The notes under the pieces are model-generated. The model did no database searches, had not been told where the DNA came from, and saw only the letters and a list, made by a program, of their open reading frames with translations. From assembly GCA_030680695.1 (NCBI GenBank), contig JAUXUT010000149.1, forward strand, positions 39,801-103,800: a stretch of DNA of 64,000 nt. Reading direction: 5' to 3'. Below are positions 6,355 through 47,956 of this stretch, piece by piece. Position 1 is the first letter of the stretch; each line of letters starts with the position of its first letter. The stretch comes from a bacterium. GTDB taxonomy: Bacteria; Patescibacteriota; Minisyncoccia; Phycocordibacterales; UBA6065. Made by a program: the position numbers and the translations under genes.

Positions 6355-6379
6355 TAATCATCGTGGTATAGTCGGATGC

Positions 6380-8229: not shown

Positions 8230-8343
8230 CTCCTTTCTGCTAAATATAGGGAAAAAATAAGAGCCCCTATGACTTGCTGGGCTGTTATTGCGAGTATAGC
8301 AGACTTACGGGCTTTGTAAAGCCCGCGAATCGGGGTGGGGCCG

Positions 8344-20935: not shown

Positions 20936-21008
20936 GCGCCCTTAGCTCAGTTGGTAGAGCGATCGACTTATACTCGATTGGTCGGGGGTTCGAGTCCCTC
21001 AGGGCGCA
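20936..21008 (+). tRNA. tRNA-Ile with anticodon TAT (UAU)
   Basis: Cloverleaf: acceptor GCGCCCT/AGGGCGC, D-arm GCTC..GAGC, anticodon stem ATCGA/TCGAT with loop CTTATAC, T-arm GGGGGTTCGAGTCCCTC; no encoded CCA. Confidence 0.8.
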
Positions 21009-21023
21009 CACGTTTCAGACCCA

Positions 21024-23806: not shown

Positions 23807-23895
23807 GGAGACGTGTCAGAGTGGTCTAACGTGCCTCTTTGCTAAAGAGGTGTACCCCTTAAAAGGTACCGAGGGTTCGAATCCCTCCGTCTCCG
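23807..23895 (+). tRNA. tRNA-Ser(GCT)
   Basis: Acceptor GGAGACG/CGTCTCC, anticodon loop TTGCTAA, long variable arm, T-arm GAGGGTTCGAATCCCTC. Confidence 0.9.
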
Positions 23896-24003
23896 CTACA
23901 AAAACTTTCTTTCGGAGTGACCCGAGTACCCCGGATTTCGGCTGAAAATAACGCTCGTATAGAACGTTCGAATCCCAGATAGGTGAGGGGACTAGATACA
24001 GGG
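23894..24003 (+). repeat. Direct repeat DR-A copy 1 (attL-like, abuts tRNA-Ser)
   Basis: About 110 bp repeated at 24859-24966 (~80% identity); first 36 bp also at 47921. Confidence 0.7.
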
Positions 24004-24037
24004 ACGGATAGGGTGTAAATGACCCGGAAACGTATAC

Positions 24038-24066
24038 TTGACTTATACGAGTATTGGGTGTATAAT
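24038..24066 (+). promoter_or_regulatory. Consensus sigma70-type promoter (TTGACT-17-TATAAT)
   Basis: ttgact tatacgagtattgggtg tataat, 120 nt upstream of the 24186 ORF. Confidence 0.6.
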
Positions 24067-24185
24067 ATATAAGTAAAAGTACTTTGAGAGACCGCGGTGT
24101 TTCGGTTGAGTTTGGAAGGAAATAAGCGATTGACTTGCTGGCACAAAGCCACGCGGATCGTAGGTTTCCTCACTAAACTCAACTC

Positions 24186-24680
24186 ATGAACACCATCACT
24201 CAAATCCCTGCTTGGGAAATCATCCGTCTTATCGCGAGAGCTCGTGCGAACTTCGTTCAGACTGTATGGAAAGAACTCAAACGCCAATCTGGCAAGCAAC
24301 CGTCTGAGAACGAAGAAAGCTATATTCGACAGGCTGCGGAAAACTTCGTCGGGCGCACTAGCGTCACGGGCGAGGCGATTGAAGCGGGCGAATACAGCCG
24401 GTCGTGCTCGATCGTTTTTCTGGGGGAGGCCCATAAGCAACTTGCCTACTTCGTGCCCTCCAAACTTCTGCTGCGCGATGTCGTCATTAACGATCAGGAA
24501 AAGGGTAATCTTCACGAGGGTTACTTGGTCACCGTGACCGTGCCCGAAGGCACGGACATCATCGAGTTCGATGGACGGAATGAGCCGCTCTGCCTGAAAG
24601 GAACGGTGTCGGCCGTGTTCGGGACATGCCTCCATGGCGAAGACGGATTCATTGTCTCGAGCTTCAAGCATACGACCTAA
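24186..24680 (+). CDS. Hypothetical protein (sole gene of mini-element E1)
   Basis: ORF with consensus promoter upstream and intrinsic terminator (24731-24758) downstream; the antisense 323-aa ORF is rejected. Confidence 0.5.
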   Translation: MNTITQIPAWEIIRLIARARANFVQTVWKELKRQSGKQPSENEESYIRQAAENFVGRTSVTGEAIEAGEYSRSCSIVFLGEAHKQLAYFVPSKLLLRDVVINDQEKGNLHEGYLVTVTVPEGTDIIEFDGRNEPLCLKGTVSAVFGTCLHGEDGFIVSSFKHTT

Positions 24681-24730
24681 TAGCGGTATCCCGCTCCAGT
24701 TCCTTGAGAGTCTGGCCAAACACTCTCTGC

Positions 24731-24758
24731 AACCCGCATTCGTGCGGGTTTTGTTTTG
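24731..24758 (+). terminator. Intrinsic terminator
   Basis: caacccgcattcgtgcgggttttgttttg. Confidence 0.65.
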
Positions 24759-24777
24759 TCTGGAAAGAAAAACTACG

Positions 24778-24860
24778 TGGGATTCGAACGAAATTTTTAA
24801 AGGGAAGGGGTCATATTTTAAGCCACGCAATTCGCGCCGTTCGAATCGCTTTTAACCCGC
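24778..24860 (+). repeat. Direct repeat DR2 copy 1 (degenerate tRNA 3'-like segment)
   Basis: tgggattcgaacg...tcatattttaagccac...ccgttcgaatcgcttttaacccgc; second copy at 33558-33639. Confidence 0.65.
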
Positions 24861-24966
24861 TACAAAAACTTTCTTTCGGAGTGACCCGAGTACTTCGATT
24901 TTCAGCTTGTTTATTAGTTAGAAAAGAACGTTCGAATCCCAGGTGGGTAGGGAACTAGATACAGGG
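24859..24966 (+). repeat. Direct repeat DR-A copy 2
   Basis: See copy 1. Confidence 0.7.
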
Positions 24967-25226
24967 TAGCTTTTGGTGATTTAGCAAATCTTTCAATTAT
25001 TGTGAAAACAATTCTCGTTGACGCAGTCGATTGTTTTTCTCAGACCTAGGAGAAAATCCACATTGTTATTGTCAACGAAAGTGGTGAGGGATACATAGCA
25101 TGACGCCAAGAAAAATATGCACTCTAAAATGATCTCCTTAGTTCTACTCTCCGGCTCAGAGAGAAGAGACTTGTATCAATAGATGACTCCGAAGTGCGTG
25201 GGAAGTCCAGAGCGGGGTGTTGGCAA

Positions 25227-26357
25227 CTAATCTTTAATGATCCTACTTAAAAAAGGATTAATATTAGTCGCAATGTCATCTGGTATCGTACCGCATTCTC
25301 TTGCAATATTCATAATAGAATTCTGGTCTCTCGCATCACTGCTAATGACTGTAACAGGGCTACCGAGTTTTACATCCTTGATTTCCGTCACATCAATTAT
25401 TGTCGTATTCATACTTACCAAACCGATTATTTTCGCAAAGTTATTGCCAATTTTTACCACGCCTTTATTTGATAGTCGTCTATCAACTCCCGTATCGTAG
25501 CCAACAGGTATTATGGCAATCTTTTTAGCTGAATCTGAAATATATGTCCCGCTGTAACCAACTTTTGAGTTTGGTTCAATATTTTTTAATCCTGATATAA
25601 CCGTTGTCAATTCCAGCACAGGCTTCAAATGAACTAACGAGTCAACTTTTCCATTGCCAGCAAAACCATATAGACCCATTCCAGGGCGAGTCACATTCGC
25701 ACTGATCTTTTCGTTATAGCCATGGCCAGCTGAATTACTTACATGAAAGTATCGGATGTTAGTAAAATTGGTTTTGAAAATATCGACAGCAGAATTCCAT
25801 GCTTCAATTTGGATATTTGTATAAGTCGAATCTGTATTACCTGCATCAGAAAAATGAGAATAAAGTCCTTCTAGTTTAAGAGTCGGTGATTTTTTTATGA
25901 GCTCAATCGATTGAGAGATTTGAGACAGAGAGATTCCTTGCCTATTCATTCCCGTATCAATTTTTATATGCACATTAGTTTTTTTACTTATTCTGCTTTG
26001 CCATTCGTAAAGCATGTCTAGACTCGTAACAGCGAATGATATATTTTTTTGGGTCGATTTGTTTACGGTTTCAGCTTGAATGTATCCAATTACGAGAATT
26101 GGGTTCGTTATTTTGTTCTGCCTGAGAGCTATGGCCTCCTCGTACGAATCAATAATAAAAAAAGGAATTTTTTCTTTACTTAATAATTTTGCAATATCGA
26201 TTAATCCATGGCCGTAGGCGTTGCTTTTTAATACTGGAGCTATGGCAGGTGAAAGTTTTTGAAATTCTTGGAAATTGTGGATAAGAGCCCGTCGAGAAAG
26301 TGATATGAGAGTGTACGGAGTTGATGGAGACTTTAACTTAAATGTGATTTTTATCAT
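25227..26357 (-). CDS. alr: Alanine racemase
   Basis: VLKSNAYGHG PLP-Lys motif, C-terminal VSMNTTIIDVT; low-GC context. Confidence 0.85.
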   Translation of the reverse strand: MIKITFKLKSPSTPYTLISLSRRALIHNFQEFQKLSPAIAPVLKSNAYGHGLIDIAKLLSKEKIPFFIIDSYEEAIALRQNKITNPILVIGYIQAETVNKSTQKNISFAVTSLDMLYEWQSRISKKTNVHIKIDTGMNRQGISLSQISQSIELIKKSPTLKLEGLYSHFSDAGNTDSTYTNIQIEAWNSAVDIFKTNFTNIRYFHVSNSAGHGYNEKISANVTRPGMGLYGFAGNGKVDSLVHLKPVLELTTVISGLKNIEPNSKVGYSGTYISDSAKKIAIIPVGYDTGVDRRLSNKGVVKIGNNFAKIIGLVSMNTTIIDVTEIKDVKLGSPVTVISSDARDQNSIMNIARECGTIPDDIATNINPFLSRIIKD

Positions 26358-26391
26358 TGAGATATTTTGATATTTATACTATTATACCCTT

Positions 26392-27846
26392 ATGTCAAGT
26401 GAACTAAAAAACAACAAGGTTGAAAAAAAGATTACCGGTAGGAATGAGGATTATTCCCAGTGGTATCTCGATATAGTTGCATCTGCCGATCTCGCAGAAT
26501 GGGGCCCTGTAAAGGGATGTATGGTCATCAAGCCTTATGGATATGCATTATGGGAAAAGACGCAGCAAATCCTCAATGAAAAATTCAAGGAGACTGGGGT
26601 ACAGAATGCATATTTCCCGATTTTTATTCCCGAAAAATTTCTCAATAAAGAGAAAGACCATATCGAGGGTTTTGCACCAGAGGTTGCGGTTGTCACTCAT
26701 GCCGGCGGCAAGAAGCTCGACGAGCCTTTGATTGTGAGGCCGACATCAGAGACTATAATGTACGAAACTTTTTCTCGTTGGATACATTCTTATCGAGATC
26801 TGCCATTGTTGATTAATCAATGGGCAAATGTGGTTAGGTGGGAGATGCGTCCCCGCATATTTTTACGTACGGTTGAATTTCTTTGGCAAGAAGGACATAC
26901 GGTTCACGAAACTGAAAGTGAGGCAGATGGACGGGCACGCCAGATGTTGGAAATTTATAAAGATATTGCCGAAAATATTATGGCCATTCCAGTTATTACT
27001 GGAACAAAATCTGATTCGGAAAAGTTTGCTGGTGCGTTTAAGACTTATTCGCTTGAAGCCATGATGCAAGACGGCAAAGCTTTGCAGTTTGCCACCTCAC
27101 ACAATTTGGGACAAAATTTTGCAAAAGCGTTTGATGTTAAATTTCTCGATAAAAACAACACCGTCCAATATGGATGGCAAACCAGCTGGGGGCTAAGCAC
27201 GCGAACCATAGGCGGTCTTATCATGACTCATAGTGATGATAAAGGATTAGTATTGCCACCAAAAATCGCCTCAATTCAAACGGTTATTACAACCATCGTT
27301 CCTTCCGAAAAAGACAGAGAAATGATAAATCAGAAAGCCCAAGAGCTTAACATACTCTTAAAGAAAGCAGGCGTTAGAACCCATGTTGATAGTCGCGATA
27401 TACGCCCTGGTGAAAAATATTATGAATGGGAAAAAAAAGGTGTTCCGATACGTATAGAGCTTGGGCCAAGAGATGTAGCCAGCGATTCCGCCATGCTTGT
27501 TAGACGCGATACTGGGGAAAAGACAAAGACAACCATGAGTTCTCTGGTCGGGGATATCAATTCTCTGTTAAATAACATACAGCAAAATTTGTACGTGCGA
27601 GCACTAGATTATCGCAAAGCAAAGACAAAAAAAGTTGATTCTTGGGATGAGTTTGTAAAAGCGATTGAGGAAGGCAATTTTGTTTTAGCTCATTGGTCTG
27701 GTGAGAAGAACGTCGAGGCTCAGATAAAAGAAGAAACGGGAGCCACTATTCGATGCATTCCGTTTGATCAGACAAATGAGTCTGGAAAATGTATAAAATC
27801 AGGCATGCCTTCTACGGGTCGGGTGATATTTGCGAAGTCTTATTAA
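26392..27846 (+). CDS. proS: Prolyl-tRNA synthetase, archaeal/eukaryotic-like class II type
   Basis: WYLDIV..ADLAEWGPVKGCMVIKPYGYALWE, VRPTSETIMY, NQWANVVRWEMR.R.FLRT.EFLWQEGHT and a C-terminal zinc-binding-like domain. Confidence 0.9.
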   Translation: MSSELKNNKVEKKITGRNEDYSQWYLDIVASADLAEWGPVKGCMVIKPYGYALWEKTQQILNEKFKETGVQNAYFPIFIPEKFLNKEKDHIEGFAPEVAVVTHAGGKKLDEPLIVRPTSETIMYETFSRWIHSYRDLPLLINQWANVVRWEMRPRIFLRTVEFLWQEGHTVHETESEADGRARQMLEIYKDIAENIMAIPVITGTKSDSEKFAGAFKTYSLEAMMQDGKALQFATSHNLGQNFAKAFDVKFLDKNNTVQYGWQTSWGLSTRTIGGLIMTHSDDKGLVLPPKIASIQTVITTIVPSEKDREMINQKAQELNILLKKAGVRTHVDSRDIRPGEKYYEWEKKGVPIRIELGPRDVASDSAMLVRRDTGEKTKTTMSSLVGDINSLLNNIQQNLYVRALDYRKAKTKKVDSWDEFVKAIEEGNFVLAHWSGEKNVEAQIKEETGATIRCIPFDQTNESGKCIKSGMPSTGRVIFAKSY

Positions 27847-27854
27847 CCCACTTT

Positions 27855-29021
27855 ATGCCCTTTAAGGTATCTATACATGATGATCTGTCTATAAAAGATC
27901 TGATAGATATTAAAGATAAGGGAGGGGTGGTGTTAAAAACACCGCATGTCGGCAATATCTACCCTAACAATCTTGCAATTGCGTCTTTAGGTATACCAAT
28001 GCTCTTTTACGATAGGACTTTGGGGGTCAAAGATATAAGTTTTCATCCAGATAAAATTATTATTGGTGGCAGGTCAACGTTAATAGCCGACCCAAACATT
28101 TTAACCACGCATTCAATAGTCAAAAAGCTTCCAGGTTTAGCGTTTAAAGATGCAGCTGTCGGTATGAAGCTGGTGGATTTTCATATGTCCTCATTTAAAC
28201 GTGCGTTACCTCAGGCGGACTGTTTTACCTACACGGAATATATTCAAAATAATAAAAGTCAGATTCTCCAGATTTTAGAAAAAATCACAGAATTTCATCC
28301 ATATTTGTGGAGCAGAGGTGTTGATGAAAGCGGAAAGACTTTTAAATCTCAAGCAAAAAATTGGGACGACATCATTAGGTCGGGAGTCCTGGGGCTTACC
28401 AGTATGAAAAGTGGTTGGATTATACCTAATCCGGTCAGCATCCTTTTTCATGGAACCGTTGATACGCTAAAGGCAAACGCAGAAGATGTGTATCTCTTAT
28501 CGGGTCCAGACATGTATCGATACATAGAGGGATACCAACTCGAACTTAACGAGGCGTACGACTATTTAAGAAAAAGCTTAAAGTGTGAACTTCCTGAAAT
28601 GGTTCGTTGTCATATTATTCCTGTCATTTGCATGAGATTTATCGTTGAGGTTGATTATAGGAAAGTGCTAGATAATTTGGTCGATGCATACTTGAGATAT
28701 GTATCTGTCGATGATGCTATCAGAAAAATACTAAAGAGTGGCGCTCAAAACATGAGCATCGATGGGCACATAAATAAAAAGGATAAAATAAAAGAGGAAA
28801 TCTATTCTTGTATCAAAGGTCAATTTGATGCATTCAAAACTACCATGTTTTATGATGTCGAGGAGGCGGGCAGTTTTAGTCAGTATGATCTCGCCAATAG
28901 TAAGGGACTATACGTTCATCCGTGGGCGGTCAATAGTAAACTAAGCGATGTATCCAAGGCTTATAGTTTTTTATTGAGGTGCTATTTGCTCGTAAGAGAT
29001 AGGCTACAGGAAGAGATGTAG
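27855..29021 (+). CDS. Hypothetical protein (389 aa), unknown family
   Basis: ORF; start moved to the MPFKVS Met to clear proS. Confidence 0.45.
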   Translation: MPFKVSIHDDLSIKDLIDIKDKGGVVLKTPHVGNIYPNNLAIASLGIPMLFYDRTLGVKDISFHPDKIIIGGRSTLIADPNILTTHSIVKKLPGLAFKDAAVGMKLVDFHMSSFKRALPQADCFTYTEYIQNNKSQILQILEKITEFHPYLWSRGVDESGKTFKSQAKNWDDIIRSGVLGLTSMKSGWIIPNPVSILFHGTVDTLKANAEDVYLLSGPDMYRYIEGYQLELNEAYDYLRKSLKCELPEMVRCHIIPVICMRFIVEVDYRKVLDNLVDAYLRYVSVDDAIRKILKSGAQNMSIDGHINKKDKIKEEIYSCIKGQFDAFKTTMFYDVEEAGSFSQYDLANSKGLYVHPWAVNSKLSDVSKAYSFLLRCYLLVRDRLQEEM

Positions 29022-29029
29022 CTACTGAT

Positions 29030-29782
29030 ATGTCAATGGAATATGATCCAATTTTATACGATTCCGATCCAAGGCCTTTTCTTAAAGATGAGATAGAATT
29101 TTACGTGAAACTAGTCAATAAATTAAAAGCTAAAACGATACTAGAGCTCGGTGTAGGAACAGGAAGAATTTTTTCAAAGTTACTTCCGTTGGTTAAATTT
29201 GCCGAGGGGCTTGATATTTCGGAATCAATGTTAACCGCATGCAGAAATAAGTGTTCTGGTAGCATGAACTACAAATTACATAAAGCGAGTTTTACGGATT
29301 TTAATTTGCAAACTACATTTGATTTGATATACCTGCCCTTTAATACTTTTCAACACCTGCTTACGCAGGAAGAGCAAATTGAGTGCTTGATAAATATTAA
29401 AAATCACATGCACGTGGGCAGTCGATTCATCCTTGATGTAATGAATGGCGATAATTTAATTTTTGATTTTGAAAACTGGAAACAGGACTATGTGGGCACT
29501 TTGGCTGAAGGTGGATCAGTTGAGCGCGAACAAAAAACGATTAAAGTAGATTCAAAGAATTTTATCATCCATAAAATATTCAGGTATAAAGAAATTGTCG
29601 CTGGTAAGATTGATAAAATTCTTGAATTTAATGCACAGATGAAAGTAACTCCAAATAAGAAGATGGGGGAAATTTTACAGATGACTGGCTTTAAGATAGA
29701 AGACGTATGGTCTGATTACGCTTTCAGTTATACGTGCGACGCGAAGAAAATAATTTATTGCTTAAAATTAAATGGAGTTTAA
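29030..29782 (+). CDS. Class I SAM-dependent methyltransferase
   Basis: ILELGVGTGR motif I and downstream acidic-loop motifs. Confidence 0.7.
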   Translation: MSMEYDPILYDSDPRPFLKDEIEFYVKLVNKLKAKTILELGVGTGRIFSKLLPLVKFAEGLDISESMLTACRNKCSGSMNYKLHKASFTDFNLQTTFDLIYLPFNTFQHLLTQEEQIECLINIKNHMHVGSRFILDVMNGDNLIFDFENWKQDYVGTLAEGGSVEREQKTIKVDSKNFIIHKIFRYKEIVAGKIDKILEFNAQMKVTPNKKMGEILQMTGFKIEDVWSDYAFSYTCDAKKIIYCLKLNGV

Positions 29783-31070
29783 ACCAACTACTATAAAGCT
29801 AGAAAAAGGACAGGTGGTCACATCAATTTACCATAGTCCATTTGACTACAATCTTCTGTACCTTATTTGTCTCGCAAAAACTGGGTTGAAGGTAAGAATC
29901 ATCCTGGACGATATAGATAATTTGGGAGTGGATAAAAGCTTTCCTGAGGGGCCATATTCTTTCAGTGAAAAGTTTTTTATGAGTAAAACAGAAAGAACAA
30001 ATATTCGAGCCCTGTCACTGATAACCCCAAAACATCTCTTTGCAAATTTGTCGCACCCAAACCTTAAGGAGTTTGACTCGAAAATCGGTATATCCACGTT
30101 CAAAGAAAACATCAGATATAGAGATACTGTTGAGCACTGGATCAGGGATGTTACGAAAGATTTCGGCACTTTTTCTCTTATTGGGCCAGATAGATCGTAC
30201 GCTTTTACCATAGTCGATCATTTTTTTGTTCAAGCAATTAGCGATGCTAAGCAGCAAATAATTGATATCTTGAAAAAATTCCCTGATCATAAAGATAACT
30301 CGATTGAATTTATTGAATGGCTTTTTGATGAAAAAGCCATTTCAATCGGCACGCCTGTCTCTGATTATTTTTTATCAGTGATGCAAAAGATCGTTGATAA
30401 ATTTGATTTGCGCGATACCGTATCAGTAGAAAGGATGTCGGACTCGGGTATTGAAGCGAATACAAAAAAACTTATGGATTCATTTACCAACAAAGATTCC
30501 CTGTGGGAGACGTATAATTATGCGGTGGTAATTGAAGGTAAAAAAAATACGGAGGATTTTCCATTTTACGCCATATCTAAGATGGACGGGAAAAGATTGC
30601 TACCTACTGATAAATACACAAATGATCCTACCAGTTATTTTCTTGCACCGAAGGTGTTGATGCTTAACAATTTTGAAAACCTCGTCTTGCCATATCATGC
30701 AATGGGTAGCATGAATGTCCGCGCCAGACAGGCAATGTATCAAAACAAAGAAATAAATTGCAATCAAATTTTCTGTGACGACGAATGGATGAAACACATA
30801 GGTTCTTTCAATATCAAGGCACAACTCGATACTGAGGAGCAAAAGATATATGATATGGATACAGTAAATTTATCTTCACTAGGAGATTTATTTGCGAAAG
30901 GGAAAAAATCATACGGAGACAGCGTAAATACAGAAGAGGCCTATAAGGGTTGGATAATTACCTCGACTTTCAATGCTATTGATCGCGTCAAATACCCACT
31001 AATTTTTATGGCACTCCTCCAAAAAGAAGTTTTTCCTACAAAAATTCCTATTTTTTACAAATTAGCATGA
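29772..31070 (+). CDS. Hypothetical protein (432 aa), unknown family
   Basis: ORF co-oriented and tightly packed with neighbours. Confidence 0.45.
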   Translation: MEFKPTTIKLEKGQVVTSIYHSPFDYNLLYLICLAKTGLKVRIILDDIDNLGVDKSFPEGPYSFSEKFFMSKTERTNIRALSLITPKHLFANLSHPNLKEFDSKIGISTFKENIRYRDTVEHWIRDVTKDFGTFSLIGPDRSYAFTIVDHFFVQAISDAKQQIIDILKKFPDHKDNSIEFIEWLFDEKAISIGTPVSDYFLSVMQKIVDKFDLRDTVSVERMSDSGIEANTKKLMDSFTNKDSLWETYNYAVVIEGKKNTEDFPFYAISKMDGKRLLPTDKYTNDPTSYFLAPKVLMLNNFENLVLPYHAMGSMNVRARQAMYQNKEINCNQIFCDDEWMKHIGSFNIKAQLDTEEQKIYDMDTVNLSSLGDLFAKGKKSYGDSVNTEEAYKGWIITSTFNAIDRVKYPLIFMALLQKEVFPTKIPIFYKLA

Positions 31071-32374
31071 TGTTGACTCTTCTCGAAAAAACGGCCGCGG
31101 CATTAATTTTAAAATTCAAACCCACGGTCGTGTGCATCACGGGTAGCGTGGGCAAGACTTCAACTAAGGAAGCAATAGCCTCTGCATTATCGACCTCCTA
31201 CACAGTCAGAAAGACTTCCCGAAATTATAATAATGATTACGGAGTACCGATAGCCGTTATCGGAGGATTTGAATCAGAAGAGGGCTATTTGGCATTACTT
31301 ACGATACTTGGCTACGGTTTATGGCAATTATACTTTCGATCAAGATTTCCACAGATTTTAGTCATAGAAGTCGGTGCCGGAAAATTTGGAGAAATCGAGA
31401 GAATCTCCCGATGGCTAAAACCTGATATGGTCGTAGTGACCAATCTCCCAGATGTTCCATCCCATCTTGGTGTTTTCGGGTCAAAAGAGATGATTATTAA
31501 GGAAAAGAAATTTCTTGTCAGTGCAATGGATAAAGAAGGAATTTTGATAATCGATAAAAACGAAAGAAATGCGAGGTATTTTTACGAGGATTTCTCCGGT
31601 AAAATTGTATTTTTTGATGCAGATAAATTTATTGAAGGCAGTAAATATACTATTGTGTATGAAGATCGAAACGATTTTAATTATCCGCTCGGTTTTAAAT
31701 TTGAGGTTGAATTAAACAACGCTGTAGACAGAAAATCCGTGACTTTTGAAGGATTTTTGGGTATTCAAAATATGAAGGCTGTTGGAATAGCGGTTTTGGT
31801 CGCTAAACAGTTAAATTGTCGAGTAGAAGATACTTTGCAAGGTATAAAAAAATATAAACCTGAGTGCGGACGCCTCAGAATAATCCCAGAGCTTAATGGA
31901 AAAATAATAGTGCTCGACGATACGTTTAATGCTTCGCCACGCGCGATTGAAAACTCATTAAGAACGCTTCTATCTTTGGAATTAAAAAAAAGCCAACGAC
32001 GGATCGCTGTTTTGGGAGATATGCTTAATTTTGGAAAAGAGGTAGAAAAGATTCACAGACAAACTGCCACGGAAGAATTACCACAGGTCGATATTCTTAT
32101 AACGGTAGGAAACATATCAGTTGTCTGGCAAGAATTTAATAGAAATAAATACCATTTGAACAAGCATTTTAAAAATGCGACTAACGCCGCTCGGTATATA
32201 GAGAAATTTCAAAAAGAAGGCAATATTATCCTTTTTAAAGGAGGTCATTTAACACGTCTTGAGAAAGCGGTTGCCATTCTAACTGGATGCCCCTCCGAGT
32301 ATCTTGTTCGACAAGAGAAGTACTACGAGATACACGAACTCGATCTTAATCCAATATCCGCCGACAATGAATAA
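31067..32374 (+). CDS. Mur ligase family protein, MurF-like (D-Ala-D-Ala-adding-enzyme-like)
   Basis: VVCITGSVGKTSTKEAIASAL P-loop, VTNLPDVPSHLGVFGSKE, GRLRII...IVLDDTFNASP and AVLGDMLNFG motifs of MurF or the CphA C-domain. Confidence 0.7.
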   Translation: MMLTLLEKTAAALILKFKPTVVCITGSVGKTSTKEAIASALSTSYTVRKTSRNYNNDYGVPIAVIGGFESEEGYLALLTILGYGLWQLYFRSRFPQILVIEVGAGKFGEIERISRWLKPDMVVVTNLPDVPSHLGVFGSKEMIIKEKKFLVSAMDKEGILIIDKNERNARYFYEDFSGKIVFFDADKFIEGSKYTIVYEDRNDFNYPLGFKFEVELNNAVDRKSVTFEGFLGIQNMKAVGIAVLVAKQLNCRVEDTLQGIKKYKPECGRLRIIPELNGKIIVLDDTFNASPRAIENSLRTLLSLELKKSQRRIAVLGDMLNFGKEVEKIHRQTATEELPQVDILITVGNISVVWQEFNRNKYHLNKHFKNATNAARYIEKFQKEGNIILFKGGHLTRLEKAVAILTGCPSEYLVRQEKYYEIHELDLNPISADNE

Positions 32375-33356
32375 ATACAAATCAAAAATTACTCCAATTT
32401 TGTTGAAGTTGGCCGAAAAATACAACGCTGAATTTCATGTAATGGATCACGATTCTGACGCTGGTTATATCGTAGGGCAAGATCACAGCAGACATTATTT
32501 TTCCTATGGAACACTGGATTTGAATAATGATGCCGCTACTGATTTTGCGAGAAGTAAGATTCTATCCTCTGAAGTCGTTTCGGCGATTAGGATCAGGGTT
32601 CCGAAGGAAAAGATGGTTAAATTCTCAATAAATTTAAAGGCCCCTATCATTAGTGTTTTGGAGGAAATCGGAACACCCGCGATAATAAAACCAGTACATG
32701 GAGCACAGGGAAAAAATATATTTAAGATAGATTCCTTAAATAATTTTGAGCTAGTTATTAAGAATAACGATTTGAGGGATGATTTAATCATTCAAGAATA
32801 TATTGACTCTCCAAATGAGATCAGGGTCGTTCTTTTAGACGGTGAAGTAATACAGGCATATAAGAGAGATTATGCGTGTGTTATCGGCGACGCGGTAAAA
32901 ACGATAAAAGAATTGATCGAAGAAAAGAATAAATATTTTCAGAACAGACAACGTAATACTGTTATCGATACAAATGACACCCAGATAGCTGTCATTCTTC
33001 AGCAACGTGGATACGATTTGAATTACATACTACAAAAAAATGAAAGACTAAATATTTCTTATGGGCGTAATTTATCGAGAGGCGGAGAGTATGAGTTTAT
33101 TACCAAGCTCAGTCCGATAATCATAGAAGTTTCTAAAAAGATTGCTGAGGCCTCCGCTCTGAGGCTGGTGGGCATTGATTTGTTTGTTGTGGGAGATCTT
33201 GACCATGTAGAGAGCGAGAATCAAATTATCTTCATAGAATATAATGCATCACCAGATATGGAGAATAATTTCTATTATGATGCTGGCTACGAACAACAAT
33301 TATTTTTGATATATGAAAAAATCTTTAGTGGAATGTGCAAATATTCCTTATTGTAA
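32367..33356 (+). CDS. ATP-grasp ligase, cyanophycin-synthetase-N-domain / RimK-like
   Basis: IIKPVHGAQGKNIF; VIGDAVKTIKELIEEKN...LNISYGRNLSRGGEYEF...LVGIDLFVV...IFIEYNASPDME; ATGA start-stop overlap with the MurF-like gene. Confidence 0.65.
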   Translation: MNKYKSKITPILLKLAEKYNAEFHVMDHDSDAGYIVGQDHSRHYFSYGTLDLNNDAATDFARSKILSSEVVSAIRIRVPKEKMVKFSINLKAPIISVLEEIGTPAIIKPVHGAQGKNIFKIDSLNNFELVIKNNDLRDDLIIQEYIDSPNEIRVVLLDGEVIQAYKRDYACVIGDAVKTIKELIEEKNKYFQNRQRNTVIDTNDTQIAVILQQRGYDLNYILQKNERLNISYGRNLSRGGEYEFITKLSPIIIEVSKKIAEASALRLVGIDLFVVGDLDHVESENQIIFIEYNASPDMENNFYYDAGYEQQLFLIYEKIFSGMCKYSLL

Positions 33357-33557
33357 GTAAGTGGTGACGGTCAGCGAATACATCGATCCGTATTCAGGAA
33401 ACTTGACGCAATCTATTTCGAGCACAGCCCTGAGGCGGTCGAGAGCGCACAAAAAGCTGGCGTTGCCTCATATCTTTATGGCCACATCAAAAAAAGACTT
33501 GATTGCGCTAAAGACTTTTTTGATTCGAGCTTGTAGAGCCTGTGGGCGAAGGTTATC

Positions 33558-33639
33558 TGGGATTCGAACGGAATCTCGGAGAGGCGTATTCATATTTTAA
33601 GCCACAAAATCCGCTCCGTTCGAATCGCTTTAAACCCGC
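33558..33639 (+). repeat. Direct repeat DR2 copy 2 (E2/E3 junction)
   Basis: See DR2 copy 1. Confidence 0.65.
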
Positions 33640-33762
33640 CTTGACAATTTAGTATCGGCGTGACCCTATTACTCGCGAGAGTAGTGCGACCCACGAACCT
33701 GCTAGATTGTACAAAACACCAAGAGAATTCTCTTGGTGTTTTGTTGTTTATATAATTATGAA

Positions 33763-34468: not shown

Positions 34469-35311
34469 CTAAATTATCCTCCCATCAATTTCGTGGAATA
34501 AATTGCTGACCATGATAAGGCGACCGAGTGCATCGTGATGCGGAAGCTGATCTTCATCGCCGTGACTAAGATTATTCCTCCACCAGTGCATGATGCCCAT
34601 AGTGGTAAGTTTGAAGCCGAGTTGCTTATTGATCTCCTGCGGTGTTGATAGAGCGTTGAACTTTATTTTCGGGTTCTGCTCACTGAAAACAGCCGCCATC
34701 AAATCAGACCCTTGCTTATCATGAGTGCTTGTAAGGTCTTGGATCGTCTTCTCGAACCTTTCAAGGGCTTTCCGCACTGACTCGTTGATATGACCCTCGA
34801 TGAACATTTTTTTGCAGTCAGGCAGAAGCGATGGATGAAGAACAAACGCATCAAGTATTTTTTGAATCGCTATCGGAGGTGGCACTGTCCTCGGTCTTTC
34901 CTTTGGAAGATTCATTGCTACAATTTCTGATTCAAGATCAATATTGAGAGCCTTAAGTCGGGTTGAAAGTTCGAGTGCTTCAGCTTCCAATACAGGATCG
35001 CCTTTCTCGTGTCGCTTTTCTATTGCCTTCGGTAGCATCTCCCGCACGAGGATTTTTATTGTTCTTGGCTTCTGGCAATAAAGATTTCGCAAGAACTCAT
35101 AGAAAGACTCCTTCTTGTTGGCTGCTTTCGTAGGAAGATATTTCGACAAACCCCTTTCTTTTGCAATTGTCGTCAAAGAAAAGGAACTTCGGAATCCTGA
35201 AAGAGCGATGAGCTTTCCGAGCTGTTCTGCCAGTGCACGGATCGCCTGCGCTTGCGGTGCTGTGACGGTCACTCTTTTCTTTGCAATCTTTTTCTTGGTC
35301 TTCTTTTTCAT
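34469..35311 (-). CDS. Abi_C/HEPN-like protein (TIGR02391-like)
   Basis: C-terminal MHWWRNNLSHGDEDQLPHHDA containing an Rx4H HEPN-type motif of the Abi_C kind; Lys-rich N-terminus. Confidence 0.5.
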   Translation of the reverse strand: MKKKTKKKIAKKRVTVTAPQAQAIRALAEQLGKLIALSGFRSSFSLTTIAKERGLSKYLPTKAANKKESFYEFLRNLYCQKPRTIKILVREMLPKAIEKRHEKGDPVLEAEALELSTRLKALNIDLESEIVAMNLPKERPRTVPPPIAIQKILDAFVLHPSLLPDCKKMFIEGHINESVRKALERFEKTIQDLTSTHDKQGSDLMAAVFSEQNPKIKFNALSTPQEINKQLGFKLTTMGIMHWWRNNLSHGDEDQLPHHDALGRLIMVSNLFHEIDGRII

Positions 35312-35983: not shown

Positions 35984-37333
35984 TTATTCCGTCACCAAGG
36001 TCAGAGTCTTGTCCTTGTAGATGATTCTCGATCGCAGATTCGCTAACAGCTCCCGCTTCTCGCTCGTCATACCTTCCTTGAGAATGTACTTGGCATAGTT
36101 GCGGATATCGGTATCCTTGTCGGTCTTGATCTTTTCCGTTGCTCCAAGCACCGATCTCTGGAATATATTGTATCGGTTGATCTCTTCCTCAAGCTTCTGC
36201 CTCATGCCAAGCTCGTTGATGTTCACCTTGTCGAGAATTTTCAGAAGCTCCGTGATGAGTTCCTCCTCACGGATATATTTGTTCTTGCAATTTCTGTCTC
36301 TTGCTCGTGAACATGAGTAGTAGATGTAGCGGTTGGCACCACCATCTTTCAATTGCTTCCATTTCTCCTCCGCCGATATTCCACTCTGGCAATATCCGCA
36401 GGTAAATAATTTGGTGAAGGCAAACTCTTTCGTCTCTCGCACGATCTGATCACGCTTCAGTTGTGCTTTCACTTTTTCAAACAATTCCTGCGTGATGAGT
36501 GGCTGATGTTTTCCTTGATACCAGTTGCCACTCTCCCTCGGTCTCTCAAAGATTCCGTAGTAGAAGGGATTCTCAAGTATTCGATAGACTCCACTTAAGG
36601 TCAGTGGCTTGTTGCCTCTGGTGTAGAAGTTCAGCTCGAACCTCATCCAGTTGTAGACCTTCCGTCCACTCCATTGCTCGTATGCGACTTTCTCAAACAT
36701 CTTTTTGATGGTCGGCGCTCTTTGCGGATCGACAAGCACCTGTCCTTTCTTATCCATGTGCTTTTGGTTTAGATATCCAAGGGGCGCCGTTCCGACCCAT
36801 AGTCCCATCTCGCATCGCGTTCTAAGTCCTCGCTTCACGTTGATGCCTCGGTTGTCGTTTTCCAATTTCGCTTGAGAACAGAGAATCATCAGCATGAATT
36901 TGTCGTTCGGGCTGTTCGTGAATCTCTGTCCGTAGGTGCGGATGTCCTGCAAATAATTTCCATCCATGAGGTCGATGACTTTCCCGAGATCGCCTGCGTT
37001 TCTTGAAATACGGTCTGGTGCCCATGTTAGTATTCCGTTGAATTTTCCTTGCTTGATCTCATCCACGATCTCGTTGAAGACGGGGCGTTGCCCAGTCTCC
37101 TTGGCCGAGTGCGACTCTCGCTTCATGGTCACGATCTCCAACCCCTCACGCTCGGCAAGCTGAAGCATCTCATTGATTTGGCTATCTATGGAGAGGACTT
37201 GCCGTTCCTCCGATTCCGTCGACTTTCTTGCGTAAAGGCAGTATTTCACCTTTACGGGGCTTGCTACTTTGGCCGCAGTCCCTAATGGCTCTGGTCCTTG
37301 TATTCTTGTCATACAACACAAGGAATGACGCAA
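35984..37333 (-). CDS. Large serine recombinase (integrase)
   Basis: N-terminal resolvase catalytic domain YARKSTESEE...SIDSQ, recombinase domain, C-terminal Cys zinc ribbon and coiled coil. Confidence 0.85.
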   Translation of the reverse strand: MRHSLCCMTRIQGPEPLGTAAKVASPVKVKYCLYARKSTESEERQVLSIDSQINEMLQLAEREGLEIVTMKRESHSAKETGQRPVFNEIVDEIKQGKFNGILTWAPDRISRNAGDLGKVIDLMDGNYLQDIRTYGQRFTNSPNDKFMLMILCSQAKLENDNRGINVKRGLRTRCEMGLWVGTAPLGYLNQKHMDKKGQVLVDPQRAPTIKKMFEKVAYEQWSGRKVYNWMRFELNFYTRGNKPLTLSGVYRILENPFYYGIFERPRESGNWYQGKHQPLITQELFEKVKAQLKRDQIVRETKEFAFTKLFTCGYCQSGISAEEKWKQLKDGGANRYIYYSCSRARDRNCKNKYIREEELITELLKILDKVNINELGMRQKLEEEINRYNIFQRSVLGATEKIKTDKDTDIRNYAKYILKEGMTSEKRELLANLRSRIIYKDKTLTLVTE

Positions 37334-38720: not shown

Positions 38721-38948
38721 GTGATTGGCACTGCTCGTCACACAGAGGAAAAGACGTTCACTGTGCTGTATCGACCTCTATACGAAAATGATTGGTTCAA
38801 ACCTGCTACCTACCAAGCAAGGCCGCTAGAAATGTTCAACGAAAGTGTCACGAAAGATGGCAAGGCGATTCCTCGTTTTCAGCAGATAACCGATCCAGAG
38901 TTAATTGCAAAACTCGAAAAGATGCGAGATCAAATTTATGGAAAATAA
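38721..38948 (+). CDS. DUF1653-family small protein; conserved N-terminus extends upstream without an ATG
   Basis: In-frame upstream read-through gives PPTGFYYHYKHDPNGPFNDYSYEVIGTARHTEEKTFTVLYRPLY...RPLEMF, the DUF1653 pattern; the open frame begins at 38649 (ATA) after a TAA. Confidence 0.5.
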   Translation: MIGTARHTEEKTFTVLYRPLYENDWFKPATYQARPLEMFNESVTKDGKAIPRFQQITDPELIAKLEKMRDQIYGK

Positions 38949-39489
38949 TAAAGAGCAAAATATAAAAATACTAAAAGCAATTCCAGAAGACGCTCTGGGT
39001 ATTACGACTGTTCTATATAAAACCTGGCTCGATACATATCCAAACGAAGAAATTGGCATCACCAAGGAAGATGTTGAGGAAAGTTATAAAGACCACTTCA
39101 TGGAGGAGCGAGTGAAAAAGCAACAGGAGAATATTGCAAATGCTCCAGCGAATCAACTGCGACTTGTTGCAAAATCTGGTGATCAGATTGTTGGAGTCTC
39201 AACGATGATTCGTAATGAAAATAATAATCAGCTAAGGACAATTTATGTTCTCCCTGAATTTCAAGGAAGGGGCATCGGTCAAATGTTGTGGAAAGAAGCG
39301 CAAAAGTTTTGTGATTCGACAAAAGATACTATTGTTCAAGTTGCTACCTACAACAAAAATGCCATATCTTTTTACGAAAAATTAGGTTTTACAGATACTG
39401 GTAAAAGATGGTCCGATGATAAATGGAAGATGAAGAGTGGTGCAACTATTCCAGAAATGGAGCTAATCATAAAAGTAAATAATTTATAA
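38938..39489 (+). CDS. GNAT-family N-acetyltransferase
   Basis: LRTIYVLPEFQGRGIGQMLW acetyl-CoA-binding motif A. Confidence 0.7.
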   Translation: MENNKEQNIKILKAIPEDALGITTVLYKTWLDTYPNEEIGITKEDVEESYKDHFMEERVKKQQENIANAPANQLRLVAKSGDQIVGVSTMIRNENNNQLRTIYVLPEFQGRGIGQMLWKEAQKFCDSTKDTIVQVATYNKNAISFYEKLGFTDTGKRWSDDKWKMKSGATIPEMELIIKVNNL

Positions 39490-39493
39490 ACGT

Positions 39494-40846
39494 ATGCCCT
39501 TAATGACTTATGACGAATATCAAAAGAATCGACACAAAACTCCCTATCTTCTTACGATAAGAGCGGGTTCAAATTTTCTCTATTATTTTGGAGAACGCCA
39601 CTCATTTAATCCAGAAGACACCCAATGGGTTGAAGAAAAAGAATTTTGGGACAAGTTTTTGTCTGACACAGAAAATCAGAAAAGAATCGTCTTTGTTGAA
39701 GGCGGTAAGCGACCAGATGAAGTAGACGAAAAACAATCGATTCTCAAACATGGTGGAATGGGTCTCACGACATATTTCGCACATCAAGCAGGCATAGAGA
39801 CATATTCACCTGAACCAGATGAAAAATGGGAACGCTCTGAACTGGAAAAAGAATTTACGAGAGAACAAATCCAGTGCTATTACTTCTCTCGTGTCGTTCA
39901 TCAATGGGGTCGCAAGCAAAATCCAAAACCAGTATTTGAAGAATATATAACACACTTTCTAGAGGGTGATAAAAAAGAAAGTGGGTGGAGTGATTTTGAT
40001 TTCTCACTTGAATCAATGAAGAAGATTTATGTCGATATTTTTCATACTGCTTTTAATGAGAATAATACTGATTTTTTCTATAGTGTAGTTAATCCTGTCG
40101 AGCTGAAGACGATTGTTAACAAAGTATCTCGCGCCTCAAGCGAAATACGCGATAAATATATCGTTGGAAAAATAGAGGAATATATCAAACAAGAATACTC
40201 AATCTTCGCTCAATACGGATGCAGCCACGTTGTAATGCAGGAACCTCTATTAAAGGAAATTTTTTCAGAGTCTCAAAAAGATTGGTCAGACTACTACAAG
40301 GCAACCAAAGCAAAACCTCCACGCCCCTTGTTGGTGAAGGCGTTTGAATATGTTGCCGAGAAAAATAAGGCAATCGATATTGGCGGTGGTGCACTCAACG
40401 ATACGAAGTATCTTCTTAAACAAGGCTTTGATGTTACCGTGATCGATAAAAGCCCTCTCATGGAACAAGAGGCTAAGAATATTCCGAGTGACAGGCTGCA
40501 TGCTTTCACTGTCGGGTTTGAAGATTTCGATTTTTTAGAGAATGAATATGATCTCGCGTCCGCAATGTATGCTTTGCCATTTATTGATCCCGCTCATTTC
40601 GATTCCATCTTTACCAAAATAAAAAGTTCTCTCAAGACAGGTGGCATATTCTGCGGTCAGTTTTTTGGAGAGCGTGATGAGTGGTCAACGAATCCAAAAA
40701 TGACTTTTCACACAAAAGAGCAAGCGGAAAATCTACTCAGCGATTTAGAGATCATTTCTTTCAAGGAAGAAGAAAAGGAAGATAAAACAGCCAAGGGCGA
40801 TATGAAGCATTGGCATATCTTTCACATAATCGCTCGGAAAAAATAA
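39494..40846 (+). CDS. Fusion protein: unknown N-domain plus C-terminal class I SAM methyltransferase (TehB-like)
   Basis: AIDIGGGALNDTKYLLKQGFDVTVIDKSP motif I; about 270-aa N-domain of unknown function. Confidence 0.55.
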   Translation: MPLMTYDEYQKNRHKTPYLLTIRAGSNFLYYFGERHSFNPEDTQWVEEKEFWDKFLSDTENQKRIVFVEGGKRPDEVDEKQSILKHGGMGLTTYFAHQAGIETYSPEPDEKWERSELEKEFTREQIQCYYFSRVVHQWGRKQNPKPVFEEYITHFLEGDKKESGWSDFDFSLESMKKIYVDIFHTAFNENNTDFFYSVVNPVELKTIVNKVSRASSEIRDKYIVGKIEEYIKQEYSIFAQYGCSHVVMQEPLLKEIFSESQKDWSDYYKATKAKPPRPLLVKAFEYVAEKNKAIDIGGGALNDTKYLLKQGFDVTVIDKSPLMEQEAKNIPSDRLHAFTVGFEDFDFLENEYDLASAMYALPFIDPAHFDSIFTKIKSSLKTGGIFCGQFFGERDEWSTNPKMTFHTKEQAENLLSDLEIISFKEEEKEDKTAKGDMKHWHIFHIIARKK

Positions 40847-40848
40847 TA

Positions 40849-41835
40849 TGGAAGCCATTTTACAAAAAATAACAGATCAATACGGACTTCGACTACAGCA
40901 TCTACAAAAAGTAGACCAAGGTTTTTTGACTGATAATCATATCCATCACGGATGGAGCGACCAAGTATTTTTTAAAGAAGTACAGGTTTAAAAATGTAGA
41001 GAAAATTAAGGAAATCCATTCCGTTAAGAAATATTTCTCAGACGGAGGGATTTCTGTCATCATGCCGATTAACACGAAAGACGGGAATAGCTTCTTCGAA
41101 CTAGAGGAAAGCTTTTATGCTCTATTTCCTTTTATCGATGATCGGCAAATGCAAGGCGAACAAATTACAAACAAAGCGGTTATCTCCTTGGCTGAAACCT
41201 TGGCAAGAATGCACCTCTTGGGTCGGGATGCCAAAATACCAGTAAGTGATTCTTTCAAGATGTGGGACAGGCAAAAGAGACTATCTGCCATTGAACAGAT
41301 TTTGGAGAAGATAAGCCAAATAAAAAATAAATCCGATTTTGATATTCGAGCCGAAAAGAACATTCTTTTCAAGAAAAATATTATTGAGTCGAAAAAAGAG
41401 GAGTATGAAAACTTGAAATTCAATAATGATCACTTGATACATGGTGATTATATGATCCAAAATGTGTTCTTTGATGGAAACGATAATGTTTCCTACGTTT
41501 TTGATTTTGAGAAAACGCAATACGCACCGCGATTTTTCGAACTATTCCGAGCAATGATTTATAGTTCATTTTTCGATAAGGAAATTACTGAAGCAATGGT
41601 GGCGCGCACAAAGCTCTTTTTGGATTCGTATCTCGAAATATATCCCGCAACTAAAGAAGATCTCGTAGAGAATTTTGAGATGTATTATTTGAGATCAGCC
41701 CATTCCGTATGGGTAGAAGAAGAGCACTATTTGAGGAATAATGACAGAGTTGATGAGCTCCTGAAAAGTGACATCGTACGAGTTAATTATCTGACGAATA
41801 ATTTAGAAAGCCTGAAGCTATTTTTGTTTAAATAA
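40849..41835 (+). pseudogene. APH/choline-kinase-family phosphotransferase, frameshifted paralog of gene 6380-7363
   Basis: N-terminal fragment MEAILQKITDQYGL...FFKEVQV stops at about 40990; the frame resumes (...SDGGISVIMPINTKDGNSFFELEESFYALFPFID) and aligns to the chromosomal YFLKQ...LFPFIEG paralog; C-part has HGDYMIQNVFFDGN and VFDFEKTQY. Confidence 0.5.
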
Positions 41836-41836
41836 T

Positions 41837-42178
41837 ATGAAAACCTGGACTCTGCGATTTCGAGTGATAGATAAAAAGAACTTTGATGAGGTTAAGAACG
41901 GATCAAAGCCTATTGAAACTCGTGCCGCAACTGTGAAGTATCAACCAATTGAAGTTGGCGACACACTTCTCTTTGTTTGCGGAAAGGAACGTCTAGAGAA
42001 AAAGATTACCAAGAAGCATCACTTTGGAAGTATTGATGCAATGATTAAGAAGATTCCTTACAAGGAAATTATGCCTTCTGTGGAATCTGTCGAGGAAATG
42101 AAGAAGGCTTATTCCTCATATTCTGGATACGATGAAAAGATAAAGGAGTTTGGCATTTTCGCCTTTGAACTTGAATAA
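41837..42178 (+). CDS. ASCH-domain protein
   Basis: Small PUA-like ASCH pattern (FDEVKNGSKPIETRAAT....IEVGDTLLF). Confidence 0.5.
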   Translation: MKTWTLRFRVIDKKNFDEVKNGSKPIETRAATVKYQPIEVGDTLLFVCGKERLEKKITKKHHFGSIDAMIKKIPYKEIMPSVESVEEMKKAYSSYSGYDEKIKEFGIFAFELE

Positions 42179-42182
42179 ACAT

Positions 42183-47920: not shown

Positions 47921-47956
47921 CGCTACAAAAACTTTCTTTCGGAGTGTCCCAGGTAC
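47921..47956 (+). repeat. Direct repeat DR-A copy 3 (right boundary of the island)
   Basis: cgctacaaaaactttctttcggagtgtcccaggtac; GC content rises immediately after. Confidence 0.65.

Follow-up and report, generated by a model that had tools for sequence, protein, structure and literature searches.

A composite island beside tRNA-Ser(GCT)

The stretch of DNA analyzed here, hereafter the window, comprises 64,000 nucleotides of a contig from a bacterium of the Patescibacteriota (JAUXUT010000149.1 of assembly GCA_030680695.1, positions 39,801 to 103,800), and positions below count from its first letter. It carries a gene for alanine racemase (alr) and one for prolyl-tRNA synthetase (ProRS; gene proS), which are divergent, with both open reading frames (ORFs) intact and start codons 34 bp apart. 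A first-pass annotation had described them as two housekeeping-type genes lodged in mobile low-GC DNA, and both halves of that description are borne out: each product scores above the cut-off of its family (TIGR00492 and TIGR00408), and the surrounding DNA combines a shift in GC and in GC at third codon positions (GC3), four repeats resembling attachment (att) sites at a tRNA gene, and recombinase and terminase genes within one island. The two genes are, however, just the first two of a unit spanning ~24857-33673, which itself lies in an island from 23897 to ~47946.

Host DNA in the window encodes SecY-adk-map, FtsH, RecG, and a tmRNA and includes a type IV pilus operon. Since its RecG shares 70-73% identity with proteins from Taylorbacteria and Paceibacterota metagenome-assembled genomes (MAGs), the host is a Paceibacteria-type bacterium of the Candidate Phyla Radiation (CPR). 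The island is a 24,027-bp insert just 3' of tRNA-Ser(GCT), and its four att-like repeat copies split it into three segments: E1 (~1 kb), E2, which is the alr/proS cassette (8.8 kb), and E3 (~14 kb). The features that define this anatomy are as follows.

23807-23896, plus strand: tRNA-Ser(GCT), the integration target (ARAGORN; Rfam RF00005, 48 bits)
23893-24003, plus strand: att-like repeat copy 1, with the final bases of the tRNA, the core CCGCTACAAAAACTTTCTTTCGGAGTGACCCGAGTAC, and a right arm (repeat search, alignment, and motif count)
24004-24810, plus strand: segment E1, of host-like GC, between repeat copies 1 and 2, with one 164-aa ORF at 24186-24680
24811-24966, plus strand: att-like repeat copy 2, with a left arm resembling a pseudo-tRNA T-arm, the core, and a right arm (repeat search and alignment)
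33590-33673, plus strand: att-like repeat copy 3, with a left arm and the variant core TTGACAATTTAGTATCGGCGTGACCC at 33636-33673 (repeat search and alignment)
33711-33744, plus strand: terminator-like hairpin with a 15-bp stem, closing the cassette (sequence)
47900-48030, plus strand: att-like repeat copy 4, the right island end (core from 47920, 27 nt identical to copy 1)

Repeat copy 1 overlaps the last 4 nt of the tRNA gene. The core of copy 2, from 24857, matches copy 1 exactly over 37 nt, with 82% identity between the right arms of these two copies; copies 2 and 3 share 80% identity in their left arms, which resemble a decayed tRNA T-arm. A 27-nt exact repeat recurs at 23893, 24857, and 47920, with start-to-start spacings of 964 and 23063 nt. 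The motif TCGGNGTGWCC is found four times in the 64 kb (23912, 24876, 33655, and 47939), always on the plus strand and each time at a repeat copy, against 0.18 occurrences expected by chance; none of 100 shuffles reached four.

In 1-kb windows, GC is 0.35-0.41 across 25-34 kb and 0.35-0.47 across 25-48 kb, while most flanking windows have ~0.48-0.57 and values are back at 0.53-0.60 from 48 kb on. The seven cassette genes have a GC3 of 0.31-0.39 versus 0.49-0.66 for 22 host genes. Segment E1 has a GC of 0.54 and a GC3 of 0.64, and its repeat arms are the same as those of the cassette; it may be an ameliorated or remnant cassette. Its 164-aa ORF had no match in PADLOC, in PHROGs, or in tblastn against 88 loci, Pfam not having been run on this ORF.

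Insertion at the site

In the related loci L009, L011, and L014, the genes follow one another as FtsH, tRNA-Ile(UAU), recG, tRNA-Ser(GCT) in the same orientation, and comF-pilM. In these relatives, recG and comF lie 5.4-8.5 kb apart, as against 29.5 kb in the window, and cassette genes were found in none of 80 recG loci. The 24-kb block is an insertion. Like tRNA-adjacent prophages and islands, it sits directly 3' of a tRNA gene, is bounded by direct repeats, contains a recombinase (integrase), deviates in composition, and is absent from the site in relatives.

The outcome that had been named as fatal to the idea of mobile DNA, i.e., vertical inheritance of the genes with local compositional noise, is contradicted by the att-like repeats at the tRNA, the GC3 shift, the insert-free relatives, and cassette homologs with unrelated flanks elsewhere. 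An assembly or binning chimera would be the other way to dismiss the island. The window does come from a MAG contig, and an independent Logan assembly of run SRR13727517 breaks at both cassette ends: its contig L001 equals exactly window positions 24864-33740, starting inside repeat copy 2 and ending inside the 15-bp-stem palindrome. A repeat and a palindrome are the expected stops for a short-k assembler, so these breaks are not signs of a chimera. Moreover, the cassette is linked to the tRNA-Ser flank through its repeat arms (right arm 82% identical), and the GC3 shift, the synteny of relatives, and the homologs with unrelated flanks argue against an artifact as much as against vertical descent. 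We regard the chance that either of the two accounts for the island as negligible.

A tRNA-Ile gene with the anticodon UAU lies near recG in the window (20936-21009) and likewise in L009, L010, L012, L013, and L014. Such tRNAs are uncommon among bacteria, and this one may allow lysidine-free decoding of AUA in the host lineage.

A proS-led operon shared by 12 loci

The cassette (~8.8 kb, 24857-33673) holds a six-gene operon in the order proS, protein A, S-adenosylmethionine (SAM) methyltransferase, protein B, MurF-like ligase, and ATP-grasp ligase, whose neighbors overlap or lie 9 nt or less apart. Its genes, with alr and a gene remnant upstream, are the following.

24993-25109, minus strand: 38-aa remnant of a 114-aa gene (ORF MASCYVSLTTFVDNNNVDFLL, compared with LASCYVSLATFVDDDDVDFLL of L002)
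25227-26357, minus strand: alr, alanine racemase (Pfam Ala_racemase_N and Ala_racemase_C; NCBIfam TIGR00492)
26392-27846, plus strand: proS, family-I ('archaeal-type') ProRS, first gene of the operon (tRNA-synt_2b, HGTP_anticodon, and ProRS-C_1; TIGR00408)
27855-29021, plus strand: protein A, 388 aa, orphan family (AlphaFold2 model; Foldseek)
29030-29782, plus strand: class I SAM-dependent methyltransferase, 250 aa (Pfam Methyltransf_25/31/11/12)
29772-31070, plus strand: protein B, 432 aa, orphan family and signature gene of the cassette (AlphaFold2 model; Foldseek)
31067-32374, plus strand: MurF-like Mur ligase (Pfam Mur_ligase_M and Mur_ligase_C)
32367-33356, plus strand: ATP-grasp ligase of the RimK, cyanophycin-synthetase G-domain, or GshAB type (Pfam RimK and GSH-S_ATP; start according to the gene call in L001)

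The same operon order recurs in 11 other loci (L002, L089, L091, L092/L093, L108, L109, L110, L111, L112, L116, and L117), and proS comes first in all 10 of those with a visible upstream end. Placing the aminoacyl-tRNA synthetase (aaRS) inside a gene cluster, as the first-pass annotation had considered, was thus apt: proS is part of a conserved set of genes in which putative ligases are prominent. By contrast with this constancy of proS, alr adjoins it at four loci (the window, L002, L091, and L108) among the 11 with a visible upstream end and is an optional, divergently read seventh cassette gene. The 38-aa remnant beyond alr has an intact 114-aa counterpart in L002, between a serine recombinase and alr; in blastn, positions 4949-5065 of L002 match 25053-25169 of the window.

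The surroundings of the operon differ from locus to locus.

L002: cassette flanked by a serine recombinase and an IS481 transposase
L092: tRNA-Arg, serine recombinase, small helix-turn-helix gene, then the operon
L091: tRNA-Gln, then alr and the operon
L089: IS200-type transposase abutting proS

In the five loci measured, operon GC is 0.33-0.36, and in four of the five the flanks are at 0.39-0.45. The att core motif of the window is absent beside the cassettes at other loci, so those copies use other sites; a quick search found no repeats around the L092 element.

The extent of the mobile unit is marked by a mosaic in L110 (6581-13575). Over an interval that starts 43 bp before proS and reaches into the 5' end of the gene for A, this locus has 81% nucleotide identity to L092/L112; its downstream part has 87% nucleotide identity to L111 through the stop codon of the ATP-grasp gene, with a breakpoint at ~8048-8290. 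The flanks of L110 are unrelated to those of L092, L112, or L111. The unit therefore has sharp edges and includes proS, and cassettes recombine among themselves. Between the window and L002, its closest cassette, synonymous divergence (dS) is 1.3-2.0 over all seven genes, and the ratio of nonsynonymous to synonymous divergence (dN/dS) is 0.03-0.11, lowest for proS (0.033) and 0.11 for alr. Similar dS and low dN/dS in seven genes indicate that they traveled together and were all kept functional; all seven cassette genes are under purifying selection.

A canonical family-I ProRS

Both housekeeping-type products are complete by family standards. Alr scores 276 bits against TIGR00492 (cut-off, 168), falls under the cut-offs of the VanT models, and has both the pyridoxal-phosphate-lysine motif VLKSNAYGHG and the catalytic tyrosine motif VGYSGTY. 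ProRS (on record as protein MDP1624855 of a 649-kb MAG contig) is full length, with the class II core, the HGTP anticodon domain, and the C-terminal ProRS-C_1 domain, and scores 604 bits against TIGR00408 (cut-off, 437). A promoter-like site lies upstream of proS at 26357-26385, and Rfam searches returned neither a leader nor a riboswitch near the gene.

At the 116 alignment columns that are invariant over 124 ProRSs, the cassette enzyme has the consensus residue in all 116. From this conservation and its dN/dS of 0.033, we infer that the enzyme aminoacylates tRNA(Pro). The best 120 ProRS homologs (69-100% identical) all have the family-I architecture, and every source-named one among them is from a Patescibacteria-group or unclassified 'bacterium' MAG. 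The window enzyme shares 93% identity with its L002 counterpart and 70-77% with ProRSs encoded in core contexts; one of these, in L096 (~77% identical), precedes infA and the ribosomal genes S13-S11-S4-rpoA by ~3 kb, and another, in L097 (~77% identical), adjoins other aaRS genes, mraY, and ftsW. Matches in IMG/VR were just 54-61% identical.

Since the family-I architecture is general among the closest ProRSs, the 'archaeal-type' label is normal for this phylum. It is no hint of foreign origin here: the closest enzymes share it in Patescibacteria-group or unclassified 'bacterium' MAGs, two of them in core contexts. In a neighbor-joining tree, the cassette ProRSs are interspersed among the others. 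We reject the label as an indication of a foreign phylum. The donor of the cassette was most likely a lower-GC bacterium of the host's own class (Paceibacteria type).

In cassette-free genomes, the gene for the 77%-identical ProRS is clustered with other aaRS genes. Its companions in L006 (2610-13989) encode a class I LysRS and two enzymes of class Ib, and those in L097 (9001-14038) encode a class Ib enzyme and an AspRS/AsnRS. L006 has a strongly mosaic GC content and genes atypical for CPR bacteria (Toluene_X and a histidine kinase).

An aaRS among biosynthetic genes is often read as a second, inhibitor-resistant copy. Applied to the cassette, this would mean that the operon makes a ProRS inhibitor, for example a prolyl-adenylate mimic, and that the cassette ProRS is the insensitive copy. 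Consistent with it, the synthetase heads a cluster of ligases and a methyltransferase with which it is co-inherited under purifying selection, and precedents exist in the extra AlaRS AcmD (ascamycin) and the extra IleRS SbzA, each of which is reported to be a resistance copy (PMC12945691). Nevertheless, not a single alignment column separates 12 cassette ProRSs from 22 non-cassette ones, of which three have a verified context and the others are so classed from the size of their contig. The cassette enzyme is 70-77% identical to core-context ProRSs, and two ProRS types, mutually 55-58% identical, fill the same cassette slot, one of them swapped between cassettes. No known antibiotic-biosynthesis family was detected. 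As judged from its residues, the cassette ProRS is indistinguishable from core ProRSs of the class, and nothing marks it as a resistant variant; the earlier suggestion of an inhibitor-resistant copy thus finds no support, and we consider self-resistance improbable.

The first-pass annotation had also raised the opposite outcome, in which the element carries the organism's only copies. In such a scenario, the island proS, and perhaps alr as well, would have replaced the native gene and made the element indispensable. CPR genomes are tiny and readily lose duplicates, neither alr nor proS has a paralog elsewhere in the 64-kb window, and the very strong purifying selection on ProRS (dN/dS, 0.033) would fit an essential function. 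The islands of Patescibacteria are, in addition, reportedly enriched in translation genes (PMC12455944). Against such a capture, the unameliorated composition of the cassette indicates a recent import. Furthermore, relatives must carry proS elsewhere, because none lies within 10 kb of recG. For these two reasons, the island proS is probably a second copy (xenolog), additional to the native one. Capture would also leave unexplained why, at every locus, proS is followed by the same five genes. We regard this outcome as possible but unlikely.

Downstream enzymes and the orphan proteins A and B

The five genes behind proS combine recognizable enzyme families with two orphan ones. Protein A is represented by 80 clusters among 5.8 billion sequences, and protein B by 31 clusters among the same sequences and by 11 representatives among 1.84 billion; all source-named members of both families are from CPR bacteria or unclassified 'bacterium' MAGs. 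Both have confident AlphaFold2 models, with predicted local distance difference test scores (pLDDT) of 93.7 for A and 94.1 for B. For A, Foldseek returned weak matches (E 0.01-0.9), nearly all to ArgRS, PanC, GluRS, and TyrRS, and residues H31 and G33 are invariant within a PHVGN stretch of the family. A is possibly an ATP-using enzyme of the HUP class, akin to class I aaRSs or to PanC. The model of B had no Foldseek match in the PDB or BFVD and may represent a new fold. Two of 29 protein B members weakly match PF16581 (HIGH_NTase1_ass), and no relative of B was found in IMG/VR. Aligned with hhalign, A and B showed no relationship (probability, 0.4%), with only a short GPD motif in common.

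Distant homologs of A (34-36% identical) of Uhrbacteria type occur in L094 (8001-10940) and, as two paralogs, in L095 (8001-11112 and 11442-12572). They adjoin a Peptidase_M19 dipeptidase and an Asp/Glu racemase and lie near murA, a context that hints at D-amino-acid or cell-wall peptide chemistry.

The methyltransferase has a weak best NCBIfam match (daptide_MTase, 58 bits against a cut-off of 175). The MurF-like ligase scores 207 bits against TIGR01143 (cut-off, 289), and its best PDB matches are all MurF; it is devoid of the MurF N-terminal domain, its residue 3 aligning with about residue 84 of MurF. A bona fide MurF was rejected on account of the absent domain and the score under the cut-off. 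The ATP-grasp ligase reaches 110 bits with the cya_phycin_syn model, far under the cut-off, and its nearest PDB entries are 8fxh, GshAB, and CphA1. A cyanophycin synthetase (TIGR02068) was likewise rejected: the two ligases are separate genes in the order M then G, and they reach 110 and 22 bits where the cut-off is 850.

These enzymes raise the question of a cell wall remodeling module, in which Alr, a Ddl-like ATP-grasp enzyme, and the MurF-like ligase would form an alternative D-Ala-D-X branch (e.g., for tolerance to D-cycloserine or to glycopeptide-like compounds) and proS would be a mere cotranscribed passenger. The three enzymes do mirror the Alr-Ddl-MurF steps, the L092 ATP-grasp protein weakly matches Dala_Dala_lig_C, and the distant A homologs keep company with a dipeptidase, a racemase, and murA. 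Yet the MurF-like protein has no N-terminal domain and stays under the murF cut-off, the ATP-grasp enzyme resembles CphA, RimK, and GshAB more than it does Ddl, and most cassettes are without alr. The presence of proS in every locus with a visible upstream end would remain unexplained as well. A module of this kind is, in our judgment, quite improbable.

A prophage remnant with a tRNA-Ser-type integrase

Segment E3, between repeat copies 3 and 4, contains the recombinase of the island and the phage genes, together with a second low-GC insert.

34469-35311, minus strand: Ymh/HEPN-like protein (Pfam Hypoth_Ymh; PADLOC Aga_HEPN and PD-Lambda-3_B, ~E 1e-9)
35984-37333, minus strand: large serine recombinase (integrase) (Pfam Resolvase, Recombinase, and Zn_ribbon_recom)
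38905-42842, plus strand: second low-GC insert within the prophage remnant (GNAT, 450-aa methyltransferase-domain protein, APH-family kinase, and two small proteins)
42844-47350, minus strand: phage module overall, with terminase subunits and two DNA methylases
42844-44940, minus strand: terminase large subunit, TerL (PHROGs phrog_38, E 6.5e-80)
44933-45370, minus strand: terminase small subunit, TerS (PHROGs phrog_4044, E 1e-10)
45331-46149 and 46064-47350, minus strand: two DNA methylases (Pfam N6_N4_Mtase)

The IMG/VR contig L105 is colinear with this module (methylase, methylase, TerS, TerL, and recombinase); protein identities to the window are 70-75% for the methylases and the recombinase and 39-48% for the terminase subunits. 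A search of IMG/VR returned no close TerL relative. The window recombinase shares 75-80% identity with recombinases of viral contigs in IMG/VR, of which those in L103 and L104 (77-80% identical) adjoin tRNA-Ser(TGA) genes; the sequence after the tRNA gene of L103 resembles the variant core of repeat copy 3, and L103 carries the att core motif. The colinearity with L105 and the recombinase relatives beside tRNA-Ser genes identify E3 as the remnant of a prophage with an integrase of a tRNA-Ser-targeting family. With Pfam and PHROGs, no capsid or tail genes were recognized in the island, where TerL, TerS, the methylases, and the integrase are the only phage genes identified; a complete prophage was therefore rejected in favor of a remnant. 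Identity of the window recombinase to those adjoining the cassette in L002 and L092 is 57-58%.

The Ymh/HEPN-type gene beside the recombinase is likely defense or abortive-infection cargo of the prophage remnant. The second insert (GC, 0.36-0.40) lies between the recombinase and TerL, and no such block is present in phage contig L105. Its 450-aa methyltransferase-domain protein has a weak PADLOC mad2 match, and one of its small proteins is RNA-binding-like, the other being without assignment. The GNAT of this insert is 44% identical to a GNAT near the L002 recombinase. Two APH-family kinases, one encoded in host DNA (6296-7363) and one in the island (41062-41835), share 32% identity.

A candidate ProRS-coupled ligase pathway

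The alr and proS genes are cargo of a mobile cassette seen only in CPR bacteria. This cassette is an att-bounded segment of a composite island that built up 3' of tRNA-Ser(GCT) beside a decayed prophage, and it was imported recently, most likely from a lower-GC bacterium of the host's class (Paceibacteria type). On balance, we favor the explanation that it encodes a ligase pathway coupled to ProRS. Its ProRS would act as an ordinary prolyl-tRNA synthetase, kept in the cassette by the reliance of the downstream enzymes on it; its most likely role would be to provide Pro-tRNA(Pro) or to adjust proline charging to the pathway. The predicted product is a small amide-linked peptide, possibly with D-Ala, that would resemble a cell wall precursor. 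The two recognizable ATP-dependent ligases together with A and B would assemble this peptide and the methyltransferase would methylate it, with D-Ala provided by Alr in those cassettes that have alr.

Several observations weigh against this reading. Over half of the cassettes are without alr, so the core pathway cannot require D-Ala. For A and B, neither profile searches of PDB sequences and Pfam nor PHROGs returned a significant match. No known fold that uses aminoacyl-tRNA (Fem/GNAT type, cyclodipeptide synthase, or LanB type) was detected. The cassette ProRS has no special residues, and a pure passenger would fit this equally well. With regard to the island itself, its sole recombinase is of the serine type, whereas tyrosine integrases are the more usual companions of long direct repeats beside tRNA genes; recombination at the att-like sites is inferred only.

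The favored explanation also has a stronger form, which we put forward tentatively and consider rather unlikely as a whole. It would be an undescribed, CPR-confined pathway, dependent on prolyl-tRNA or coupled to ProRS, with two new enzyme families (A, a relative of class I aaRSs or PanC, and B, whose fold has no detectable relative), a truncated MurF-type ligase, and an ATP-grasp ligase. Such a pathway would make a methylated, possibly D-Ala-containing peptide conjugate and would have spread whole, with its own aaRS, by serine-recombinase elements and prophage-associated islands.

Relation to known systems and significance

In staphylococci, islands of the staphylococcal cassette chromosome (SCC) family, such as SCCmec and ccr-less pseudo-SCC, are moved by the large serine recombinases CcrAB. 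The island described here is alike in its tandem cargo segments, which share a single chromosomal position and are each enclosed by direct repeats of the integration sequence, and in having a large serine recombinase in one segment only, so that the others would need movement in trans. It differs in its target, which is just 3' of tRNA-Ser rather than rlmH, and in its recombinase, which is of the phage-integrase type and lies beside TerL/TerS. In the islands reported for Patescibacteria, genes for translation (ribosomal proteins, tuf, and groS) are over-represented (PMC12455944), whereas an aaRS-led operon as cargo is not described there, the words 'aminoacyl' and 'synthetase' being absent from the text.

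Extra aaRSs in actinomycete clusters (the AlaRS AcmD with AcmF, for ascamycin, and the IleRS SbzA) serve aminoacyl-tRNA supply, self-resistance, or both (PMC12945691). The cassette resembles these clusters in keeping an aaRS among tailoring or ligating enzymes. In those cases, however, an actinomycete makes a known product, and the aaRS is measurably unlike its housekeeping counterpart, whereas here the ProRS cannot be told from core enzymes and no enzyme using aminoacyl-tRNA was detected. With the Alr-Ddl-MurF branch and with split cyanophycin-synthetase-like pairs, the cassette shares a racemase dependent on pyridoxal phosphate, an ATP-grasp ligase, and a Mur-family ligase. It is set apart from them by a MurF-like protein that is without the N-terminal domain and under the cut-off, by an ATP-grasp enzyme that is not Ddl by score, and, relative to CphA, by the absence of the CphA N domain and by ATP-grasp and Mur-type enzymes that are unfused. 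Literature searches returned nothing on this gene combination, nor on serine-recombinase prophages in CPR bacteria.

In streamlined CPR genomes, every retained gene is thought to count. The window thus offers an anatomically resolved case of an essential-type translation gene that moves horizontally in a defined cassette among such bacteria. The linkage of a canonical ProRS to the same five genes over deep divergence, and even through an allele swap in the proS slot, is strong comparative evidence for a functional tie of tRNA charging to a ligase pathway. Proteins A and B, as orphan families with confident models, provide a handle for new chemistry linked to aminoacyl-tRNA or peptide ligases. 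Finally, the four att-like sites and the phage-type serine recombinase of a tRNA-Ser-targeting family constitute an integration system in a phylum that is still without genetic tools.

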